A stretch of DNA of 64,000 bases from assembly GCA_002411005.1 (NCBI GenBank), contig DHQC01000013.1, forward strand, positions 68,586-132,585, in the 5' to 3' direction. A model generated the notes under the pieces. That model saw only the letters and a program-made list of their open reading frames with translations. It did no database searches and was not told the DNA's origin. How positions within the stretch are numbered: the first letter of the stretch is position 1; each line of letters starts with the position of its first letter. The position numbers and the translations under genes were made by a program. The stretch is from Bacillales bacterium UBA5348. GTDB lineage: Bacteria > Bacillota_I > Bacilli_A > RF39 > UBA660. Below, one piece after another: positions 5,003 to 50,195 of this stretch.

Positions 5003-5344
5003 GGGGCTGCTTGGTTTCGACGGGAACTATAAAGCTTAGATGGCAAGTCGTAGGCATGCGTTAAATCCATCAGTTTAATAACTGGAAATAATAAATTAGC
5101 ATTCGCTGCTTAATTAAGCATTAGCGAGCTCTTCTTATCGTTTTTCTCACGAAGGATATTAAGGGCACATTAAAGTGAGATATATCATTGTCTTGTTTGG
5201 GTGCAATGATGAAAATTACCAAACTAGTTAGTGATTGGTTGTTAATTTCTATAATTACTAATGAATTTAATAAATTAACTAAACTTGTAGAAGTCTCTGA
5301 AGTTATATTTTCGGACAGGGGTTCAATTCCCCTCAGCTCCACCA
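5003..5344 (+). ncRNA. ssrA: tmRNA (SsrA)
   Basis: 5' GGGGCTGCTTGGTTTCGACGGG and 3' GGACAGGGGTTCAATTCCCCTCAGCTCCACCA tRNA-like ends; internal tag reading frame ...GNNKLAFAA* (gga aat aat aaa tta gca ttc gct gct taa); immediately downstream of smpB. Confidence 0.9.
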
Positions 5345-5604: not shown

Positions 5605-7317
5605 ATGATAACGGATGAATTAGAGGAAATATTTAGTAAAAATATAAATGAATTAGGTTATATTGGTGAGTATGGTAAGATAGCTACATCAAACCGAGCA
5701 GAGCTTTGTGATTATCAATGTAATGATATTTTTAAAATATCAAAAGAATATCATGAGAATCCAGTAGAAATTGGTGAAAAGATAGTTGAAAAAATAAAAT
5801 CATTAACAAATTACAGTGATTATTTTGATAATGTTGAATTTTCAAAACCAGGATTTATAAATATAACATTAAGTAATACTTTTATAAATAAACATGTTTT
5901 AAATATAATAACTAAATATAATTTAGGTGTTGAACAAAGCAAAAGTGAAAGAATATACTTTTTAGACTATGGTGGTCCAAATATAGCTAAGCCGTTACAT
6001 GTTGGTCATTTAAGAGCTGCAATAATTGGTGAATCACTTAAAAGAATTATTGAGTTTAAAGGATATAAAACAGTTGGCGATGTTCACTTAGGTGATTATG
6101 GCTTACAGATAGGTCAGGTTATTTATGGCTTGTTAGATGATTTTAAAGGTACAGCTTCAAAGGATATTGTTTTTGATTTAGCGTACTTGGATGAGTTATA
6201 TCCTAGAATGTCTAAATTATGCAAAGAGGATGAAGAGGTATTAAAGAGTGCCCAAAGAATAACTAAGGATCTTCAAGATGGTAATGAAGATTACCAAATA
6301 TTATGGAAAAAGATTTGTGAATTGTCTTCCGCTGATATAAAGGAGATATATAAATTTTTAGATGTATCATTTACTTTGTGGAATGGTGAAAGTGATAGTT
6401 ATCCTTACATACCCAAAATTATTAAATATTTAGAAGATAAAAACTTAATAGAATTAAGTGAAGGCGCTAAAATAGTTCAAGTAGGTGAAGAAACTGATGC
6501 AAAGGAAATGCCTCCATTCATATTACAAAAAAGTGATGGAGCATTCTTATATAGCACCACTGATTTAGCTACTATTTATGAAAGAATGGAAAAATATAAT
6601 CCGAGTCATATTCTATATGTTGTAGATGCAAGACAAAAATTACATTTTGAACAATTGTTTAGAGTTTGTAAAAAATCATTATTAGTAACTGATACTTCAT
6701 TAGAACATATTGGATTTGGTACTGTAAATGGTGTTGATGGTAAACCTTTTAAAACAAGAGATGGTGGATCTCTAAAACTTACTGATTTATTTTTACAAGT
6801 TAGGGAAGAATTTATTAATAAAAAAGAATCTAATCAAGAAATGTCATTTGAAGATGTAGATAAGATCGTTAATGCGATTATAAAGTTTGCTGATCTACAA
6901 AATAGCTTGGAAAACAATTATATATTTGATATAAAGAAATTTTCAGATGTGATTGGAAAGACAGGGCCATATATTTTGTATACTTATTTAAGAATTAATA
7001 AAATTCTAAGTAGTGAAAATTATAATATTAATTTATCTAATCAAATATATAACATTTATGATCGAAACTTAAGACTTAAATTATTAGAATTAAATTCATA
7101 TATAGACAAAGCTTTTAATGAGAGAAAACCAAGCTTTGTAGCTGATTATGTATATGAGTTATGTGTAACAGCAAATGCTTTTTATCAAAATAATTATATA
7201 GTTAATCTTGAAGATAATGAAAATAAGAGCGATTGGCTCAGTGTATTAAATATTTCAAATCAAGTAATTAAGAAGATGTTAGAATTATTAATTATTGAAA
7301 TTCCTACTCAAATGTAA
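5605..7317 (+). CDS. argS: arginine--tRNA ligase
   Basis: HIGH-region PNIAKPLHVGHLRAAIIG, class I ArgS length; GAAGGAGAG RBS before the ATG at 5605. The upstream ATG at 5575 lies inside the T-box terminator. Confidence 0.9.
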   Translation: MITDELEEIFSKNINELGYIGEYGKIATSNRAELCDYQCNDIFKISKEYHENPVEIGEKIVEKIKSLTNYSDYFDNVEFSKPGFINITLSNTFINKHVLNIITKYNLGVEQSKSERIYFLDYGGPNIAKPLHVGHLRAAIIGESLKRIIEFKGYKTVGDVHLGDYGLQIGQVIYGLLDDFKGTASKDIVFDLAYLDELYPRMSKLCKEDEEVLKSAQRITKDLQDGNEDYQILWKKICELSSADIKEIYKFLDVSFTLWNGESDSYPYIPKIIKYLEDKNLIELSEGAKIVQVGEETDAKEMPPFILQKSDGAFLYSTTDLATIYERMEKYNPSHILYVVDARQKLHFEQLFRVCKKSLLVTDTSLEHIGFGTVNGVDGKPFKTRDGGSLKLTDLFLQVREEFINKKESNQEMSFEDVDKIVNAIIKFADLQNSLENNYIFDIKKFSDVIGKTGPYILYTYLRINKILSSENYNINLSNQIYNIYDRNLRLKLLELNSYIDKAFNERKPSFVADYVYELCVTANAFYQNNYIVNLEDNENKSDWLSVLNISNQVIKKMLELLIIEIPTQM

Positions 7318-7323
7318 ATATAA

Positions 7324-7352
7324 GAAAAAGATCTTGATGTTCAAGATCTTTT
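7324..7352. terminator. bidirectional rho-independent terminator between argS and the HerA-like gene
   Basis: aaaagatcttgatgttcaagatctttt perfect hairpin flanked by A/T runs on both sides. Confidence 0.7.
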
Positions 7353-7354
7353 AT

Positions 7355-9136
7355 TTACTTAAAATGTCCACTCCATATATCAAACACAAGAGCATTACTA
7401 CTTTGTGGCGGTGGAGTTGGAGCCTCCAATTTGATAATCATTGGAATTTTGAAAGCTTTTCCTAAACCAACACAGTATCCTGGTTGAATGCTTCTTTGTT
7501 TCTCAATGATATCGGTATTTATGTTTGGTATTGCTTTTTTCATATATTCTAAGTCCCTAGGATGATTTGTTCTAAATAATAGGAAAGAAGAGCATTGTGA
7601 TAAAACAGTTTCAGAAAGTTCTGTTGGTCTTTGTGAAATTAATGTTAAAATTATTCCATATTTACGTCCTTCTTTAGCGATACTTTCAAAAACATTATTT
7701 CCATATATGATATTATAATCGTCTTTAACAAAACGGTGAGCTTCTTCTAAAAAGATATGAACAGGGATAGAGGCTCTGTTTTTTAAATTTGCAACAAAAT
7801 CAAACATTAATTTAGAATACGTTCGTGTAATAAAATATGCAAATTGGTCTTCAAGACCCTCAATATTAAAATCAATTATTTGTGTTCTTGCTTGACCGTT
7901 TTCGGTCACCAAGTCTGCAATATACCCTTCTAAATTAACATAATTTTGGTATTCAAAGTATTTGCTATATCCACCTACAACAAGTGCGTGTAATCTCATC
8001 TTTAGCATCATTGCACTATTATAGAGCTTTTCGTTACTTAATATATTTTCTGATATTATTACAAAATTAAGTGCATCTTCTAGATCTGTCAGGCTACATT
8101 TACCAACCATTTTAGTGGCTTGTTTTTCTAAATCATCATTTATAAATTGTTCAATATATTCACTTACTAGAATGTTTTCGGCAAATGTTCCTGTTTTATT
8201 AATGTCAAAACATTTTCTAAATTCTCTTGTGTAGCCTATGCCCGGGATTTCTATATTCATTGATAATTCATTTGTTGAACAAATACTAAGAATATCAAAT
8301 ATTTCACTTCTAATTCTGGTTGCTGACAGATTTGAATACATTAATGTTTGGATAGATTTTGCAATAATATGATTTTTGTATTTAGCAGCATTATCATTCC
8401 CTTGTGTTAAAATAGCTAGAACAAAAATTGTTTTCTCAATAATAGATAATTGGCTATATTCTGTCGCTCCAAGGAGGCATGCAATATCATCTATATCAAG
8501 TAGCCATAAAGGTATTGACATTAAATTTGCCTCATCGCTTGTATCTGTAGAATAACGTTTAACTTTATAATTTTGATTAATTGTATTTATATTTTTAAAT
8601 GCAGATGTATATTCCCCATGAGCATCAAAAAGTAGAATCATAGAGTTAAGTGCTATATTATTAGGATTCTGGTATAAAGATTGTAATATTCTAGCAACTC
8701 CATAGGATTTACCACTACCTGTATTACCAAAGATTGCAACATGGCCACTAAACAAATCATCAACATTAACATTTACAGGACGATTATATAAGACAGATGT
8801 ACCAAAAGAAAAACTCTTCTTATCGTTTGTATTCATAATGATATTTAACTCATCATCAGAAATTAATCTAACACTTGAATTTAACTTGGGCTTTCTTATT
8901 ACTCCGGGTACTAAAGTATTATCTTTAAATTCGCCTAAAAATTGTACATTAACAATGTCCCCATCTATTTCTTCTATTTCACCTAAAATTCTGCGTTCTC
9001 CGTCATCAAAAATAAGGTGTAAATTCATTAAATCTTTAGAAAAGGTTTCATTTGTTGTAATTTTCATTTTAGCTTCATTATCGTTTATAAATATTATCTT
9101 TTCTAACATAGTAATCACCTCTATCATCTCTTCCAT
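7355..9136 (-). CDS. HerA-like (DUF87) FtsK/HerA-superfamily ATPase, standalone
   Basis: 593 aa; N-terminal HAS-barrel-like region (GEIEEIDGDIVNVQFLGEF...PGVIRKP), Walker A VAIFGNTGSGKSYGV, Walker B IFLEEAHRFV, sensor region LISQRPTELSETVLSQCSSFLLFR. Confidence 0.7.
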   Translation of the reverse strand: MEEMIEVITMLEKIIFINDNEAKMKITTNETFSKDLMNLHLIFDDGERRILGEIEEIDGDIVNVQFLGEFKDNTLVPGVIRKPKLNSSVRLISDDELNIIMNTNDKKSFSFGTSVLYNRPVNVNVDDLFSGHVAIFGNTGSGKSYGVARILQSLYQNPNNIALNSMILLFDAHGEYTSAFKNINTINQNYKVKRYSTDTSDEANLMSIPLWLLDIDDIACLLGATEYSQLSIIEKTIFVLAILTQGNDNAAKYKNHIIAKSIQTLMYSNLSATRIRSEIFDILSICSTNELSMNIEIPGIGYTREFRKCFDINKTGTFAENILVSEYIEQFINDDLEKQATKMVGKCSLTDLEDALNFVIISENILSNEKLYNSAMMLKMRLHALVVGGYSKYFEYQNYVNLEGYIADLVTENGQARTQIIDFNIEGLEDQFAYFITRTYSKLMFDFVANLKNRASIPVHIFLEEAHRFVKDDYNIIYGNNVFESIAKEGRKYGIILTLISQRPTELSETVLSQCSSFLLFRTNHPRDLEYMKKAIPNINTDIIEKQRSIQPGYCVGLGKAFKIPMIIKLEAPTPPPQSSNALVFDIWSGHFK

Positions 9137-9312
9137 TATAAAGTAGATTTGTATTTAAGACAATATTTAATCACAATTTAATTATTTATAGGTTTATCTC
9201 TTAACAAAAAACAAAATCTATAAAAATGTCAAAAAGCAAAAGTTTGTTAGAATAACATAATTATTAGTAATATTTAAATTCTTAGGCTATAATATAATAA
9301 GGGTGATAAGAT

Positions 9313-11118
9313 ATGGAAATAAGGCTAAAAGAGCGTAGTGAAATAGAAGAAAAATATAAGTGGGATTTATCAATAATGTATAAAGATGATATGGAGTGGA
9401 ATAACGATTTTGATAAATTGCGTAATGATATGCAGGAGTTTTCAAAATATAAGGGAGTGTTAGGAAACAGTTCAAGTGATTTGTTATTAGCATTACAGGA
9501 AAAGGATAACTTAAATAGAAGGTTTGAAAAACTGGCTTCCTACGCAATGAGGAAAAGTGATGAAGACACTAGGGATATGGATGGAGCTAAGCTAAAAAAT
9601 ATGATCTTTAGTTTAGGGGCTGAGTTTGTTGAAATATCTTCATTTTTTGATCCTGAAATAATTAGTATTGGTAGGAATAAAATAGAACAGTTTATAGATG
9701 AAAAAGAAGCTCTTATGACTTATTGTCATTATTTAGAAAATATTATTCGTTTTAAAGAACACACTTTATCTTTGGAAGAAGAAAAAATCATGGCTAATGC
9801 GAGTGAAGTTTTATCTGCCCCTAGCAAGATCTTTACAATGCTTAATAATGCAGATATTAAATTTGAAAACATTAAAGATGAAGACGGTAACGTTGTTGAA
9901 TTAACTAATGGCAATTATAGTAAGTACATTTCATCTCATGATAGGAATGTTAGAAAGGATACTTTTAAAGTCTTGTATAAAGGTTATAAAGGTCTAAAAA
10001 ATACTTTTACTGAGGTTCTTATTGGGGATATTAAAGCTCATTATTTTGAATCTAAAAACAGAAAATTTTATAGTCCTTTAGAAATGTCACTTTTCAATAA
10101 TAATATTGATATTAAAATTTATTATAATGTTATAAAAGTAGTAAATATGAATTTAAATAAAATGCATAAGTATGTCAAAATGAAGAAAGATCTTTTAGGG
10201 CTAGAAGAGCTACATATGTATGATTTTTATGTTGCATTAATTAAGGAATATGATATTGAATACACATATGATGAAGCATTAAATCTTGTTTTTAAGGCAC
10301 TTACACCATTGGGGGAAGAATATATTAAAAATACTAAAGAGGCTTTTGATAAACGCTGGGTTGATGTGTATGAAAATAGGGGAAAGAGGACTGGTGCTTA
10401 TAGTTCTTTCGGTTATGATACCCCACCATATATTCTCTTAAATTATAATGGTAAGCTTCATAGTGTGAGTACTATTGCTCACGAGTTAGGACATTCACTG
10501 CATTCATATTATTCGGCTTTAAAACAACCATATATATATCATGAATATTCAATTTTCGTTGCTGAAGTAGCTTCTAATGTAAATGAAGTACTTTTAAACA
10601 TGTATATGATTGATAATGCTAAAAACAGGCAAGAAAAGATGTCTCTTATAAATGATTTTTTAGAAAGTGTAAAAGGATCAATATATCGTCAGACTATGTT
10701 TGCTGAATTTGAGAAAAAAATATATGAGCTTGAAAAGGACAAAAAGCCTTTAACAGAGCAAGCATTTAGTGATTTATATTACGAATTAAATAAAAAATAT
10801 TATGGAGAGGACATTATATCTGACGAAGAAATAAGATATGAATGGATGAGAATACCCCATTTTTATTATCAATTTTATGTTTACCAATATGCTACTGGTT
10901 TAGCAACTGCATTCTTTATAGCGAACAACATTTATAATGGTGATATTGCTTTTAGAGATAAATATATAAAATTTTTATCTAGTGGTAGTAGTGATTATCC
11001 AGTAGAACTCCTAAAAATACTTGGCGTAGATATGAAAAACGAAAAAACAATGCAGTGTATTCTTGATTACTTTGATACACAAATTGAGGAATTTCTTAAA
11101 CTAGCAAAAGAAAAATAA
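9313..11118 (+). CDS. pepF: oligoendopeptidase F (M3B family)
   Basis: 601 aa; zinc motif HELGHSLH; overall PepF-like. Confidence 0.85.
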   Translation: MEIRLKERSEIEEKYKWDLSIMYKDDMEWNNDFDKLRNDMQEFSKYKGVLGNSSSDLLLALQEKDNLNRRFEKLASYAMRKSDEDTRDMDGAKLKNMIFSLGAEFVEISSFFDPEIISIGRNKIEQFIDEKEALMTYCHYLENIIRFKEHTLSLEEEKIMANASEVLSAPSKIFTMLNNADIKFENIKDEDGNVVELTNGNYSKYISSHDRNVRKDTFKVLYKGYKGLKNTFTEVLIGDIKAHYFESKNRKFYSPLEMSLFNNNIDIKIYYNVIKVVNMNLNKMHKYVKMKKDLLGLEELHMYDFYVALIKEYDIEYTYDEALNLVFKALTPLGEEYIKNTKEAFDKRWVDVYENRGKRTGAYSSFGYDTPPYILLNYNGKLHSVSTIAHELGHSLHSYYSALKQPYIYHEYSIFVAEVASNVNEVLLNMYMIDNAKNRQEKMSLINDFLESVKGSIYRQTMFAEFEKKIYELEKDKKPLTEQAFSDLYYELNKKYYGEDIISDEEIRYEWMRIPHFYYQFYVYQYATGLATAFFIANNIYNGDIAFRDKYIKFLSSGSSDYPVELLKILGVDMKNEKTMQCILDYFDTQIEEFLKLAKEK

Positions 11119-11123
11119 GCGTT

Positions 11124-12398
11124 TTAGGAATGCTTATTTTTTGTGTTGAAAATATTTTTCAAAGAGCTTAGTCTTAAATATGTATTGTAGGTTTGTTTGT
11201 TAATAATTAAATTAAATTCTCCAATATATTCTACAACCTCTACGTTAAACCCTTTTTTAAATTCGTATAGTCCATAAAGAGGATCGCTTTTGTCAAAATT
11301 GCCTGTTATCCCATTGTGGTGAACAGAGGAATACCCTTTTTTTGTGAATTCATTTATTACAGCCCATTTAATTAAATGATTTGCAGAAAATGATTTAAAC
11401 TTTTCGTTGTATCCATCAATTAAAAAGAATGCCTCTTTATTATATTTAATAACGGCAGATGTAGCTATTACAACTTCATTTGGGTAGGCCTTAAATAAAT
11501 TGTTAGCATTAACAACATCGTTTTTATATACACTAAGTAATCTATCTGAGCTCATTTTTAAACTGATATATTTATTTTTCTTTTTACTCTTGGTGTTCTT
11601 TTGAACTAAATTTGTTATTTCACTGTTATATTTTAATTCATTTTCATATAAATTCTTACTTGTTTTCATATAAACTGCAGGATCTAATTTAGCAAAATAA
11701 ATGTCAAACATATCGTTTTTTGAGAATATTTCGTAATAATCAAAATAATAATTTAATTTTCTTGAATGTTTTTTACCAACCAAACTATAAAAGAGTTTTA
11801 AATCATTTCTATTACCCTTATATATTGTGACACCTCTTTTATAACTTTTTCTTATTTTATTTCTTGTTTCTTTATTAAATGAAGAAAAGGTTTGAGTAGA
11901 TGAGTTGTTTAACTTTGTAACAATATTCCATCTTGGTTTTGCTGTTTCAAAATTAAGATTAAATCCAAAATGAATATAATTCAGTTTTCCCAGAAGCTCA
12001 ATTAGATTTTCGTTATTAACACCACTTGGAATTGGGTTGCCCTTAATATCTCGCTCAACATGTATAACGTAGGGATCGATTGTAATATATATATAGCCTA
12101 GGCGAAACAAATAATTTTTAAGTAATTTTGTAAAGGTAGCTACTAAATTAAAATCATTAAAATCAATCAAAAAACCACGCGGTGCATAGCCAACTTTAAA
12201 ATTTCCTAATTTTTTATAACTTAGGATAAGGGTTGCTCCAATCAAATTATTACCATCATCTAACAAACCAACGTAAATATCAATATAGCCGTGACGATTC
12301 ATCAAAGCCCCATATTGACTAGTTTGGTAGAAATTATGATTTTTATGATTAAAAGCAAATTTATCAAATTGTTCTTTAGTTAATTCTATTATTTGCAT
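11124..12398 (-). CDS. FemAB-family peptidoglycan interpeptide-bridge aminoacyltransferase
   Basis: ~425 aa; FemA/FemX/MurM-like sequence throughout; probable start MQIIELTKEQ with AGGAA RBS (the track ORF extends 3 codons further to 12407). Confidence 0.7.
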   Translation of the reverse strand: MQIIELTKEQFDKFAFNHKNHNFYQTSQYGALMNRHGYIDIYVGLLDDGNNLIGATLILSYKKLGNFKVGYAPRGFLIDFNDFNLVATFTKLLKNYLFRLGYIYITIDPYVIHVERDIKGNPIPSGVNNENLIELLGKLNYIHFGFNLNFETAKPRWNIVTKLNNSSTQTFSSFNKETRNKIRKSYKRGVTIYKGNRNDLKLFYSLVGKKHSRKLNYYFDYYEIFSKNDMFDIYFAKLDPAVYMKTSKNLYENELKYNSEITNLVQKNTKSKKKNKYISLKMSSDRLLSVYKNDVVNANNLFKAYPNEVVIATSAVIKYNKEAFFLIDGYNEKFKSFSANHLIKWAVINEFTKKGYSSVHHNGITGNFDKSDPLYGLYEFKKGFNVEVVEYIGEFNLIINKQTYNTYLRLSSLKNIFNTKNKHS

Positions 12399-43748: not shown

Positions 43749-44681
43749 ATGATTAGAAAAAAAGTTTTTAAAAATTTAGATGAACAAATCGAAATTTTAC
43801 AAAGCAAAGGCCTGACAATTAACGATATAGAAAAAACAAAAGAAATTCTTCTTCGAGAAAATTATTTTTTTATAAGTGGTTATCGTTACATTTTTATGAA
43901 ATCAGTGAAAAATAAGGTTTTCTTAGATGGAACAACATTTGAGGAATTATATGCTTTTTTTACGTTCGATCGCAGCTTACGAAACATATTTTTTAAACAT
44001 TTATTAGTCGTAGAGAATAATTTAAAATCAATTTTTAGTTATCAACTATCTAAACAATATGGTATAAGAGAAAAAGACTATTTAAAAGCTTCAAATTTTA
44101 CAAAAGATATAACGAAAGCAAGGCAGGTCGCTGATGTTCTTCACAAAATGAAGAGACAAGTCAGGGTTAATGGCTCACAGCATTCAGCAACAAGACATTA
44201 TATGATAAATTATGGATATATTCCACTATGGATATTAGTTAAAGTTTTATCTTTTGGTATAATCGGCGAACTATATTGTATTTTAAAACCCGAAGATCAA
44301 CAGGTAATAGCTGATTATTATGATTTAGATGTAGAAAGTTTTATGATATTTTTGCCATTGCTTTCTAATTGTAGAAATTTATGTGCACATGAAGATATTC
44401 TATTTGATCATCGCACCCAAAGATCAATCCTTGATAATGAATATCATTTAAAACTTAAAATACCAATGGAAAATGATGAATATATTTATGGGAAAAACGA
44501 TTTGTTTGCTTATATCCTTATTTTTAAATCAATGTTAAGAGAAGAGGAATTTAGACACTTAGTATATGAAGTAGATTATGAGATAGCTAGATTAGATGGT
44601 AAGGTATCAGTTATCCCTGTTGAGAAAATCTTAAACAGGATAGGATTTCCTAATAATTGGCGTGAAATTGTAGATTTGTAA
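43749..44681 (+). CDS. Abi_2 (AbiD/AbiF-like) abortive-infection family protein
   Basis: ~310 aa; LDEQIEILQSKGLTI, NYFFISGYRY, FDRSLRNIFFKHLLVVENNLKSIFSY match the Abi_2/Abi-alpha family N-terminal signature; AGGTGA RBS. Confidence 0.7.
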   Translation: MIRKKVFKNLDEQIEILQSKGLTINDIEKTKEILLRENYFFISGYRYIFMKSVKNKVFLDGTTFEELYAFFTFDRSLRNIFFKHLLVVENNLKSIFSYQLSKQYGIREKDYLKASNFTKDITKARQVADVLHKMKRQVRVNGSQHSATRHYMINYGYIPLWILVKVLSFGIIGELYCILKPEDQQVIADYYDLDVESFMIFLPLLSNCRNLCAHEDILFDHRTQRSILDNEYHLKLKIPMENDEYIYGKNDLFAYILIFKSMLREEEFRHLVYEVDYEIARLDGKVSVIPVEKILNRIGFPNNWREIVDL

Positions 44682-47475: not shown

Positions 47476-47549
47476 GCAGATGTGGTTCAATGGTAGAATG
47501 CCACCTTGCCAAGGTGGAGACGCGGGTCCGATTCCCGTCATTTGCTCCA
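47476..47549 (+). tRNA. tRNA-Gly (anticodon GCC)
   Basis: GCAGATGTGGTTCAATGGTAGAATGCCACCTTGCCAAGGTGGAGACGCGGGTCCGATTCCCGTCATTTGCTCCA; 7-bp acceptor stem, anticodon loop cTTGCCAa, encoded CCA. Confidence 0.85.
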
Positions 47550-47550
47550 A

Positions 47551-47590
47551 ACGAAAGCAAACCCTTATAAAATAAGGGTTTTTTATCTTG
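47551..47590 (+). terminator. rho-independent terminator after tRNA-Gly
   Basis: aaacccttataaaataagggtttttt. Confidence 0.7.
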
Positions 47591-47600
47591 AAATGTTGTT

Positions 47601-47620
47601 TAGGTACTAACTAGGTACTA
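47601..47620 (+). repeat. tandem 9-mer taggtacta-ac-taggtacta (left-end subterminal repeat)
   Basis: seen directly; the same dimer recurs at 49993-50012. Confidence 0.7.
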
Positions 47621-47895
47621 TGTTCATCTTATTTCACTATATTTTTTGGTTGTATTTAACTATTTTTAAAGCAAATGTATGTATTTTGCACCACCTCATA
47701 TAATATGATGATTTAAATTTTCAAACCCCCTATTTTGCACCGAATGATGAATAGTCCTTAGAATACTAGACTTTTTTATTTTGTATGTTATATTTATGCT
47801 AAAAATTTGTAAAATAATCTTTAATTGATAATAATAAGGGTAGTATAAAACTACTCTTTAATAAAAATAAGAATAGAATAAGGTAGGTGAATAGA

Positions 47896-48453
47896 ATGAC
47901 AAACATTTTTAAATTAATTTACAAGAGGCTGAAAAAAATGTATAATAGAAATACAAGTATGCGTGAGGTGATAGGTGTGTTTGATGTTAAAGAATTAGCT
48001 TGTTACATAAAAAAACAATATTTTGACTTTGCAAGCGAGGAAATATCTCCAATTAAATTACAAAAATCTCTATATTTTCTTTTTGCATATTGGGGTGGCT
48101 TTGTTCAAAAAGGTATAAATAACCCAGATTTTTCTGAAGAAAAGTTTTCTGAGAACGATAGGTATTTATATAATGCGAGAATAGAAGCTTGGATTTATGG
48201 ACCAGTTATTCCAGATGTATATCGAGATATCAACCTAGATAGCCATTGTAATGATAATTTGTTTGATACTCGAGATGATATAAAAAAATATGTAGATGAT
48301 TTTTTGAGAGATACGTTTGAAGTGAGTGACTTTAAATTAGTAGAATCTGCGCATAATGATGAGGCCTGGAAAAGCAAATTTTCTCTTTCTAATGAATTTC
48401 ACAATAGAGAAATTGATAAAGAGGAACTTATAAACGAGTATGCACTTAAGTAA
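47896..48453 (+). CDS. Panacea-domain (DUF4065) protein, putative PanA/SocA-like antitoxin
   Basis: FDVKELACYIKK...ISPIKLQKSLYFLFAYWGG...IEAWIYGPVIPDVYRD matches the Panacea domain core (KLQKLLY ... AW..GPV...VY); ATG at 47896 after AGGTAGGTG. Confidence 0.65.
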   Translation: MTNIFKLIYKRLKKMYNRNTSMREVIGVFDVKELACYIKKQYFDFASEEISPIKLQKSLYFLFAYWGGFVQKGINNPDFSEEKFSENDRYLYNARIEAWIYGPVIPDVYRDINLDSHCNDNLFDTRDDIKKYVDDFLRDTFEVSDFKLVESAHNDEAWKSKFSLSNEFHNREIDKEELINEYALK

Positions 48454-48979
48454 TAGTATTTATTCTCATCAAAATCGCACAAAATTCGGTGGTCCCATTC
48501 AAGAAAGATTCGCTGAAAAAACAAAGAAGATAGACTTTACTTTCGCTTTGAGTTCGTTCAGATACCCAGAGGAATTTTTTACAAACTTTTCCAAAAGTGA
48601 TAATTTTGGTAGATTTCAGAAATTGAAGGGAATATATTTGGAAAACGAAGAGGGAAAGGACATATTAAAAAAATTTAGAAGACGCTATGTTGAAAATATT
48701 GATAAACATTATTTTGATAGAATAATAAGAATACTAAATTACCATAATAGATTTAATATCACAGAAGAGCAAGTAGTAAATATGTTAAAATGTAAATATA
48801 GGGAAGATCCTCGGATACAATTATTCATTATGAGCGATAATGGCGTTTCGAAAGTATATTTAGTTGATCTACACCACTTGGGATTTCCAGGAGATGCAGA
48901 TGGTCGTCGCTATGATATGAATGATATGTATAGAAAGTTTGAAAATGCAGAATACAATATTTCACATATATTAGATTAG
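48440..48979 (+). CDS. hypothetical protein overlapping the Panacea gene by 14 nt; candidate cognate toxin
   Basis: 179 aa, no TM, no recognisable domain; possible Rx4H (RILNYH) motif; translationally coupled arrangement. Confidence 0.4.
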   Translation: MHLSNSIYSHQNRTKFGGPIQERFAEKTKKIDFTFALSSFRYPEEFFTNFSKSDNFGRFQKLKGIYLENEEGKDILKKFRRRYVENIDKHYFDRIIRILNYHNRFNITEEQVVNMLKCKYREDPRIQLFIMSDNGVSKVYLVDLHHLGFPGDADGRRYDMNDMYRKFENAEYNISHILD

Positions 48980-49010
48980 ATATAATTAGTTAGCTAGTAT
49001 TTTTATTGTT

Positions 49011-49040
49011 GACAAGCATAAAATATAGAGTATAATAAGT
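49011..49040 (+). promoter_or_regulatory. near-consensus sigma-A promoter inside the islet
   Basis: ttgaca-17-tataat; a second extended -10 (tgtggtataat) ~49122-49134; AT-rich direct repeats (atgaaaatgta / atgtaaaaatgtg) lie between them. Confidence 0.5.
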
Positions 49041-49161
49041 GAAACCGCGTAACATATGAAAATGTACATAATTTTATATGTAAAAATGTGTAAAAAAGAG
49101 ATTTTTATTAATTTTTCGATTTTGTGGTATAATATAATTATAATAATAGGGAGGAATAACT

Positions 49162-49326
49162 ATGAAAGAAAAAAAGGACTTTGTTTCTTTACGCCTAGAA
49201 AAAGAAGAATTGGCTAAGAAACTACGTCCAAATATTAAAAAAGTAGATGAAAGTGATCCTCAACTTAGTATTATGCTAAAATCATTTGAGAAAGATGACT
49301 GCAAAGAATATAGAAAGCTTTTGTAG
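49162..49326 (+). CDS. small (54 aa) putative ribbon-helix-helix-like protein, candidate antitoxin
   Basis: MKEKKDFVSLRLEKEELAKKL...; GGGAGGAA RBS; not in the ORF track (under 60 aa); directly upstream of the MazF-like ORF. Confidence 0.4.
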   Translation: MKEKKDFVSLRLEKEELAKKLRPNIKKVDESDPQLSIMLKSFEKDDCKEYRKLL

Positions 49327-49336
49327 GAGGTTGTTT

Positions 49337-49810
49337 ATGCAAGTTGGACAAGTTATATTGATTAATAATATTGATAAAATAGGTGGCGCGCCACAAAAGT
49401 CTTCTATAAGACCTGCCATAATTAGGGAAATTTATGCACCAAATTTGATAGATGTTAGATTAGTATCAACTATCTATGTTAATGGCGATGTAAAAGCACA
49501 AAGTCTTGAAGAAGCCAGTGAAGCTATAAAAAATAATTTAAGAGGGCTTTTCCCACACTGCGAGCAATATATTATTATCACACCAGAGGAAAAAGGAATT
49601 TTGAACTTTAGTTATGTTTATGGAAATATGTATACCGACATAATAAACACCGATAAAACAGAAATTACTATTCTTAAAGATAGAAAAACAAATGTTCCTT
49701 TTGTAATAAGTAGCGATGTTAAGGCCAAGATAGAAGAAAAAGAAATAGAAGCAATGATAAAGGATATAATAAAGCAATATGATATAGAGTACAAAAAAAT
49801 AAACAGATAG
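49337..49810 (+). CDS. MazF/PemK-like (CcdB/MazF fold) protein with an internal insertion, candidate endoribonuclease toxin
   Basis: MQVGQVILINNIDKIGGAPQKSSIRPAIIREIY...IDVRLVST aligns with MazF's [29 protein letters not shown]...AIVAAIT. The C-terminus SSDVKAKIEEKEIEAMI aligns with MazF's DEMMDKVDEAL. AGGAGG RBS before the ATG at 49337. Confidence 0.5.
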   Translation: MQVGQVILINNIDKIGGAPQKSSIRPAIIREIYAPNLIDVRLVSTIYVNGDVKAQSLEEASEAIKNNLRGLFPHCEQYIIITPEEKGILNFSYVYGNMYTDIINTDKTEITILKDRKTNVPFVISSDVKAKIEEKEIEAMIKDIIKQYDIEYKKINR

Positions 49811-49835
49811 TGTCAACGAAGAATTTGATGAAAAC

Positions 49836-49866
49836 AAAAAAACAATGTTAGTATAGATTGTTTTTT
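49836..49866 (+). terminator. rho-independent terminator after the MazF-like gene
   Basis: aacaatgttagtatagattgtt + T8. Confidence 0.6.
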
Positions 49867-49922
49867 TTGATTTATAGGAATATCTCAATTATACCTCGAA
49901 CAATACATTAGGAGGTGGAATC

Positions 49923-49979
49923 ATGTTTGAATTAATTAGTGATGCAGAGTTGATGATATATATGTTAGAACTAGAATAA
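49923..49979 (+). other. 18-codon mini-ORF (MFELISDAELMIYMLELE) with a strong RBS, followed by a perfect 9-bp palindrome
   Basis: AGGAGGTGG 5 nt before the ATG; gaactagaa-taat-ttctagttc hairpin (49964-49985) overlaps the stop codon. Confidence 0.3.
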
Positions 49980-49992
49980 TTTCTAGTTCTTT

Positions 49993-50012
49993 TAGGTACT
50001 ATTTAGGTACTA
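49993..50012 (+). repeat. tandem 9-mer taggtacta-tt-taggtacta (right-end subterminal repeat)
   Basis: copy of the motif at 47601-47620, same orientation. Confidence 0.7.
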
Positions 50013-50116
50013 AAAAACAAGATTGATGCGTGTTGGTAAATTATAACGAGTAAGCAAACCTTTTAAAATCAACGTGTTAATGGTGGATAGTAGTGCGAAA
50101 TGATGTATCTTTAAAA

Positions 50117-50175
50117 TCCCGTCATTTGCTCCAAATGAAAGTAAGCCCTTATAAAATAAGGCTTTTTTATATTTG
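50117..50175 (+). repeat. direct repeat of the tRNA-Gly 3' end + terminator (attR-like)
   Basis: tcccgtcatttgctccaaatgaaagtaagcccttataaaataaggcttttttat versus tcccgtcatttgctccaaacgaaagcaaacccttataaaataagggttttttat at 47533. Confidence 0.75.
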
Positions 50176-50195
50176 GAGGGTTTGCTTTACTTTTT

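Follow-up and report, generated by a model that had tools for sequence, protein, structure and literature searches.

What places a stretch of DNA that encodes no integrase, neatly bounded by direct repeats, at the 3′ end of a tRNA gene? The question is raised by a locus of Bacillales bacterium UBA5348 (assembly GCA_002411005.1), in contig DHQC01000013.1, of which we analysed positions 68,586 to 132,585 of the forward strand. These 64,000 nucleotides are referred to as the window, and coordinates are those of the window unless a locus is named. The islet in question comprises 2,584 bp between two repeats at the 3′ end of tRNA-Gly(GCC) and carries two small gene modules. An initial annotation, made from the sequence alone, had proposed that it was inserted there by site-specific recombination. 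We find that the islet is a real and recent site-specific insertion. Our preferred interpretation, to which we give a probability of roughly 0.68, is that it is the remnant of a temperate prophage, similar to a cis-mobilizable element (CIME), which has kept both of its att sites and the toxin-antitoxin-type morons next to them.

Borders of the insertion

The target gene and the two repeats are located as follows.

47476 to 47549, + strand: tRNA-Gly(GCC), the integration target (ARAGORN; Rfam RF00005, 65.9 bits)
47533 to 47589, + strand: attL; a 19-bp core of full identity (47533-47551), then a terminator hairpin with T-run that the element brought in (47552-47589)
50117 to 50173, + strand: attR, the identical 19-bp core followed by the original host terminator

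The tRNA-Gly 3′ end and its terminator had been reported to recur at 50117, and alignment confirmed this. The two copies (47533-47589 and 50117-50173) are identical at 52 of 57 positions (91%), the five mismatches being at 47552, 47558, 47561, 47578 and 47587. Both open with the same exact 19 nt, TCCCGTCATTTGCTCCAAA, which occurs twice in the 64 kb against an expectation of 0.01. The attL repeat takes in the final 17 nt of the tRNA gene, the next AA and then a hairpin with a T-run; the core itself (47533-47551) is made up of the 3′ strand of the T-stem, the 3′ strand of the acceptor stem, CCA and AA. The repeat is found only twice in the window and hence is not a generic terminator, which had been named as a possible pitfall. 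The description of the stem mismatches as compensatory is only roughly right. Both copies do fold, but the computed attR hairpin is the weaker (−7.3 kcal/mol, with a one-base bulge) compared to the attL hairpin and U-run (−10.7 kcal/mol).

Unoccupied sites were located in two ‘Bacilli bacterium’ metagenome-assembled genomes (MAGs) of the same species as the window, L004 (GCA_028680775.1) and L006 (GCA_028704935.1), which were reached via a near-identical allele of the downstream DUF3592-like protein. In both, the order is amidase gene, tRNA-Gly, aaatgaaagtaagccc... (the attR flank of the window) and DUF3592-like gene, with no insert; aaatgaaagtaagcccttataaaataaggctttttt sits directly 3′ of the tRNA and leads on into the DUF3592-like gene. 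Identity of the flanks to those of the window is 99.5-99.7%. Inspection of the aligned flanks showed that the sequence following the tRNA in these MAGs is that of the attR flank. The original host flank has therefore been kept at attR and the crossover lies inside the 19-bp core. The attL sequence past 47551 is unlike the empty-site allele, and 47552-47589 was therefore brought in by the element. These conspecific empty sites prove the assignment of the repeats as attL and attR of integration into a tRNA gene; the opposite outcome, relatives with the same genes and no duplicated tRNA end, was not what the search of relatives returned.

The exact islet proteins are present on seven contigs from four source collections (ENA, Logan, NCBI and JGI). 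One of these, the 2,625-bp contig L002 (Logan SRR22315502), covers exactly 47522-50146. Its ends, like those of L009, L010 and L011, fall on the branch points that a k = 31 de Bruijn graph must have if the sample contains both occupied and unoccupied alleles. Of these, L010 is a unitig of the empty allele, which begins in the tRNA and runs on into an attR-type flank. Together, L002 and L010 show population-level polymorphism at the tRNA-Gly site within one sample series. Two more contigs of the same species carry unrelated inserts at this site, at the equivalent of 50117-50125: L005 (around 5900-5960), with an insert of more than 5.9 kb encoding ABC-transporter/FtsX genes and an unknown protein of 270 aa, and L007 (1-1450), with an unknown protein of 389 aa. 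Both inserts lack the TAGGTACTA dimers that are described below for the islet, and their identity with attB begins 4-6 nt beyond the point at which it does in the window, so that the site appears to be used by different integrases. With at least four alleles in this one species, the tRNA-Gly site is a hot spot.

Arm-type sites and the integrase family

Inside each border the islet carries a short direct dimer.

47601 to 47620, + strand: left arm-type dimer, TAGGTACTA-AC-TAGGTACTA, in the P′ position, 51 nt past the CCA end of the tRNA
49993 to 50012, + strand: right arm-type dimer (P arm), TAGGTACTA-TT-TAGGTACTA, placed 124 nt ahead of the attR core

The motif TAGGTACTA occurs exactly four times in the window (0.43 expected), as these two dimers with 11-nt spacing. 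A search of phage sequences, as the initial annotation had advised, located the dimer pattern in 13 IMG/VR loci. Three loci (L015, L016 and L019) retain an intact attP, which reads P-dimer, 113-114 nt, a core resembling a tRNA 3′ end with its terminator, 41 nt, and P′-dimer; after the P′-dimer comes the stop codon of a minus-strand tyrosine integrase gene. At 16 viral or metagenomic loci an integrase gene (int) ends within about 50 nt of a dimer. The integrase int15 has Phage_integrase and SAM-like domains as well as a sub-threshold match to Arm-DNA-bind_4. From their sequence context, the TAGGTACTA dimers are the arm-type sites at which a family of phage tyrosine integrases putatively binds.

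Integrated attL forms of the family are observed at tRNA-Ser (L014), at tRNA-Ala (L154) and, in another species, at tRNA-Gly (L025). Their layout is that of the window: tRNA, terminator, dimer and then, where the contig continues, int. The attL and attR of the window share this family layout minus the integrase, and their arms (51 and 124 nt) are each longer than the phage arms by ~10 nt, about one helical turn. Two other loci are decayed relatives in this att family. L073 (4559-4899) has tRNA-His, a dimer and only the C-terminal ~65 codons of int, together with an HNH/NUMOD homing-endonuclease gene; L096 (955-1735) has tRNA-Ala, a terminator and a dimer, and no int in the next 630 nt. A viral contig, L171 (5001-7729), links the att design to the cargo considered below. 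Here a PanA-PanT gene pair is found immediately upstream of an attP that shares the design but not the arm motif; AATAAGACCT-N-AATAAGACCT dimers are placed 192 nt apart around a tRNA-like core. The reconstructed attP of the window has the same dimer spacing of 192 nt. The minus-strand integrase after the attP of L171 is 33% identical to that of L015.

No DNA match of the islet to cultured phages was found with blastn, and the family integrases are at most 34% identical to those of Bacillus phages. Metagenomic contigs are the only known source of the TAGGTACTA arm motif and of its phage family. L095, which has two dimers 1.16 kb apart, was rejected as a relative; it is a terminally redundant and unrelated marine contig. 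Most high-GC hits in the metagenome dimer scan are probably chance matches.

An internal att copy

A third, degenerate copy of the att sequence, which was absent from the earlier account of the repeats, lies close to the left dimer.

47726 to 47782, + strand: att2, a decayed core with its own hairpin and T-run, 39/57 identical to attR

The next best match in the window reaches 31 and the best of 200 shuffles 34. A longer alignment, of 47591-47785 with 49985-50176, scored 130 compared with 77.6 ± 6.7 for shuffles. att2 begins 125 nt past the left dimer, at the spacing of a P arm. The left dimer thus fits two roles, P′ arm for attL and P arm for att2. This placement suggests that att2 is the scar of an earlier tandem accretion, followed by deletion between dimers.

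Cargo of the islet

Two modules, each with its own promoter, and a very small open reading frame (ORF) make up the remainder of the islet.

47918 to 47946, + strand: sigma-70-type promoter of module 1, TTTACA-17-TATAAT, 11/12 consensus match
47938 to 48453, + strand: ORF1 (called gene, 171 aa), Panacea-domain (PanA/SocA-like) putative antitoxin
48440 to 48979, + strand: ORF2, putative PanT toxin of a ~180-aa family, overlapping ORF1 by 14 nt
49009 to 49036, + strand: consensus sigma-70 promoter of module 2, TTGACA-16-TATAAT, 12/12
49162 to 49326, + strand: ORF3 (54 aa), with a DPQL..L..F motif, putative antitoxin or regulator and upstream partner of ORF4
49337 to 49810, + strand: ORF4 (157 aa), conserved uncharacterised family of uncultured Bacilli
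49923 to 49990, + strand: 18-codon ORF (MFELISDAELMIYMLELE) with a strong ribosome-binding site, AGGAGG

The promoters are indeed near-consensus, as first described. The position of the module 1 promoter and the lengths of homologues place the true start of ORF1 probably at 47959 (ATG) or 47977 (GTG, preceded by GAGGTG), giving a protein of about 158-164 aa. ORF1 scores 23.5-23.7 bits against PF13274, just below the cut-off of 25.7. This family is matched by 27 of 28 ORF1 homologues (46-57% identity; best E 1.4e-9), and ORF1 itself matches phrog_1281 (E 9e-19). The initial description of a Panacea protein with an overlapping partner is thereby upheld. Panacea proteins are documented as type II antitoxins whose toxin partners are many and unrelated (PMC8832971), and ORF1 and ORF2 form a putative PanAT toxin-antitoxin pair, predicted to be translationally coupled.

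A k-mer-seeded search for homologues of ORF2 returned only ORF2 itself and a full phmmer scan was therefore used. The family has invariant residues at S39, L141, D143 and H146 (LIDLYHLG motif). It has no match in Pfam, PHROG, PADLOC, NCBIfam or PDB sequences; the structural model of ORF2 resembles the RelE/ParE fold, with an N-terminal extension. Judged by these database comparisons, ORF2 would represent a new PanT family. The pairing of PanA with ORF2 recurs in L037 and at 18 viral loci.

In module 2, ORF3 always precedes the ORF4 homologue (L026, L027, L028-L031 and L032-L034). The two genes form a strictly conserved cassette, found in at least five unrelated contexts including the end of a prophage (L026), where the pair follows tail, holin and lysin genes. 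No relatives of the ORF4 family were found in IMG/VR. ORF3 had been called ribbon-helix-helix-like, a label we do not support; it has no family match in family searches, and the conserved feature is the DPQL..L..F motif. ORF4 had been called MazF-like. It has no Pfam, NCBIfam or PDB sequence match, hhalign gave a probability of <1% against MazF and EndoA (reference sequences entered by hand), and unlike the Kid/PemK/MazF toxins (CcdB/MazF fold, with small upstream antitoxins) it shows no significant sequence or profile similarity to PF02452. What stands is a weak likeness to Kid/MazF. The model is of low confidence and has, relative to Kid/PemK/MazF, a ~50-residue insertion and a C-terminal helix; ORF4 is tentatively read as a Kid/MazF-like SH3-barrel toxin. 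Judged by gene order and conservation, ORF3-ORF4 is probably a second toxin-antitoxin or defence pair.

We note several settings of the cassette in other genomes. In L027, a Bacilli MAG, it lies at 7824-8492 between sigF and the spoVAC/AD/AEB genes. In L032 (5813-6501) its neighbours are relA and, on the upstream side, spoIIP and a LytR-family gene. In L028-L031 (~7200-11700), from another species, genes for a Mob_Pre relaxase and a large serine recombinase are found downstream of ORF3-ORF4; this variable region is another integration hot spot. From gene neighbourhood, a link of ORF3-ORF4 to sporulation is possible.

It is conceivable, if unlikely, that ORF3-ORF4, and possibly module 1 too, is some other small accessory module, for example a phage-defence or sporulation pair. 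Such a role would sit well with two proteins that match no family, with the poor model of ORF4 and its insignificant hhalign results, and with the neighbours sigF, spoVA and spoIIP. It accounts less well for a strictly conserved two-gene cassette in so many unrelated contexts, equipped with a consensus promoter and with a small partner gene upstream; for module 1, it has to contend with the documented role of Panacea proteins as antitoxins (PMC8832971).

A 10-bp hairpin (−12.0 kcal/mol, z −4.95) has the stop codon of the MFELISDAELMIYMLELE ORF in its loop, and its T-run abuts the right dimer. This ORF may encode a leader peptide, be a remnant or have arisen by chance.

Origin of the islet

The claim that the islet has no integrase was borne out by tblastn with a related integrase, which found no homologue in the islet or in the window (best E 0.14); the four islet ORFs have no recombinase family match in family searches. 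With no cognate integrase in either, the islet is therefore a remnant or CIME-like and not an autonomous element. Two origins had originally been offered, a decayed integrated element and a cargo islet mobilised in trans. The former is favoured here, specifically as a temperate-phage remnant, while the latter is possible. A minus-strand reading after the left dimer, ending in ...AKYIHLL*, was tried as an integrase remnant and judged to be chance.

The events that we infer are as follows. A lambda-type tyrosine integrase of a low-GC Bacilli temperate-phage family would have inserted the element into the 3′ end of tRNA-Gly(GCC). The attP of this family comprises the tRNA-3′-end core and terminator with a direct TAGGTACTA dimer on each side. 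Recombination within the 19-bp core supplied a replacement tRNA 3′ end and terminator, now in attL, and displaced the original host terminator downstream, into attR. The cargo would first have been captured by tandem accretion beside an older islet, and the phage body then lost through deletion between two 20-bp dimers, an order suggested by the location of att2 at P-arm spacing from the left dimer. The integrase and all other phage genes would have gone in this way, with the att sites, the arm dimers and the att-proximal morons remaining. The cassettes most likely would stabilise the segment by addiction, abort phage infection, or both.

Several observations weigh against a prophage remnant. 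A fragment of an int pseudogene is not recognisable after the left dimer (tblastn). No full-length progenitor phage with this cargo and these arms was found. All seven islet-bearing contigs show the identical integrase-less form, and the loss of int after arrival is therefore a step that we infer. The core of att2 retains 13 of 19 positions and is far more decayed than attR, which equals attB; the accretion would therefore have to predate arrival at the tRNA-Gly locus, and so early an accretion equally fits an element that was already integrase-less on arrival. Searches with exact patterns of the element-derived attL flank and of core plus dimer gave 0 matches in viral contigs and 0 in metagenome contigs. 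The same search of genome contigs gave one match, L025, from another species, whose contig ends at the dimer.

An alternative is that the islet is a functional, minimal and integrase-less att cassette, CIME- or satellite-like, which arrived without int and is moved by the Int/Xis of a TAGGTACTA-type phage. The phage, co-resident or infecting, would act in trans, or in cis after tandem accretion, and the cassette would spread toxin-antitoxin or defence cargo. Both att sites and arm dimers are intact, and the reconstructed attP has the family geometry. With attR equal to attB and flanks >99.5% identical to the empty strains the insertion is recent, and still there is no trace of int; nor does any of the islet contigs depart from the integrase-less form. 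The att2 scar can be taken as a sign that the unit has moved as a composite at least once before, and a single sample series contains the occupied and the unoccupied allele together. On the other hand, the islet is known at one locus of one species only, and neither an attP junction contig nor a helper prophage was found. The L002 unitig runs through 50135-50146, which speaks against an abundant circular junction in that sample. The truncated or missing int of L073 and L096 shows that simple decay is common in the family. We regard a mobile cassette of this kind as rather improbable.

A broader version, which we hold to be doubtful, would place the islet, as an active member, in a so far unrecognised class of att cassettes that have no integrase and parasitise a family of temperate phages of uncultured Bacilli. 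If so, such cassettes would keep only the core and TAGGTACTA arms, use helper Int/Xis and grow by tandem accretion. They would ferry toxin-antitoxin or defence cargo, including the RelE-fold PanT family, between strains at the tRNA-Gly hot spot.

That there was no insertion, only a local duplication or a generic terminator, with the segment between the repeats lost from the empty strains, is effectively refuted: deletion between the 19-bp direct repeats would likewise regenerate attB, yet the repeat starts inside the tRNA and is otherwise absent from the window, the attL flank differs from attB as element-derived DNA should, the arm dimers match the attP of integrase-carrying phages, other strains hold unrelated inserts at the same nucleotide positions, and an empty allele that arose by deletion still presupposes an earlier insertion.

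Comparison with known systems

The islet belongs to known kinds of element, a prophage remnant or CIME that carries a PanAT system. CIMEs have lost integration and transfer genes and kept attL and attR (PMC5704250). They were defined for the ICESt1/ICESt3-related islands of Streptococcus thermophilus (Pavlovic 2004; Bellanger 2011; reviewed in PMC5704250). Like them, the islet is without integration genes, has kept attL and attR, lies at the 3′ end of a conserved gene and bears a sign of tandem accretion, the internal att scar. Unlike the CIMEs of ICESt1/ICESt3, its parent would be a temperate phage family and not an integrative and conjugative element, and its target is a tRNA gene. Mobilisation of the islet by a helper integrase, in cis or in trans, would be plausible.

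The islet also resembles cryptic or defective prophage remnants at tRNA genes, and the attP with arm-type sites of lambda/P4-type tyrosine integrases. The tRNA 3′-end core is duplicated as attL and attR, the islet supplies the replacement tRNA end, arm-type repeats flank the core and morons adjoin att. Unlike the usual prophage remnants, the islet is unusually clean, with both arms and cores and zero phage gene fragments. Module 1 shares with the PanAT systems (Kurata et al. 2022, PMC8832971) a two-gene operon in which a Panacea (DUF4065/PF13274) protein is joined by a variable partner, and like them the pair is frequent in prophages. It differs from known PanAT in its partner, a ~180-aa family that lacks a database match, whose core is predicted to be RelE/ParE-like and which is extended at the N-terminus.

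Two results are new in a modest sense: the PanT family and, for an uncultured phage family, the design of its arm sites and attP. The islet offers a clean natural case of att-proximal phage cargo outliving the phage, in which att sites, dimers and two cassettes persist; the internal att scar would record an earlier accretion step. The work defines, for a phage integrase family seen only in metagenomes, the arm motif and the layout of attP, as well as a tRNA-Gly hot spot and a conserved, putatively new family of Panacea-antitoxin partners. Current concepts are unchanged by these findings. Both the PanT family and the ORF3-ORF4 cassette lend themselves, as cheap and concrete candidates, to the study of toxicity and defence.

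Flanking genes and other features of the window

The flanks are housekeeping genes, as had been described. An Amidase_3+LysM gene lies upstream; a DUF3592-like gene and then an ABC-F gene lie downstream. Further upstream, at ~43749-44681 (5812-6744 of L001), there is an Abi_2 (PF07751, abortive-infection) gene, just upstream of genes for an HtrA-like protease and the amidase. It is present in islet-positive and empty-site strains. The window also contains a transfer-messenger RNA gene at 5003-5344, with the tag peptide GNNKLAFAA.

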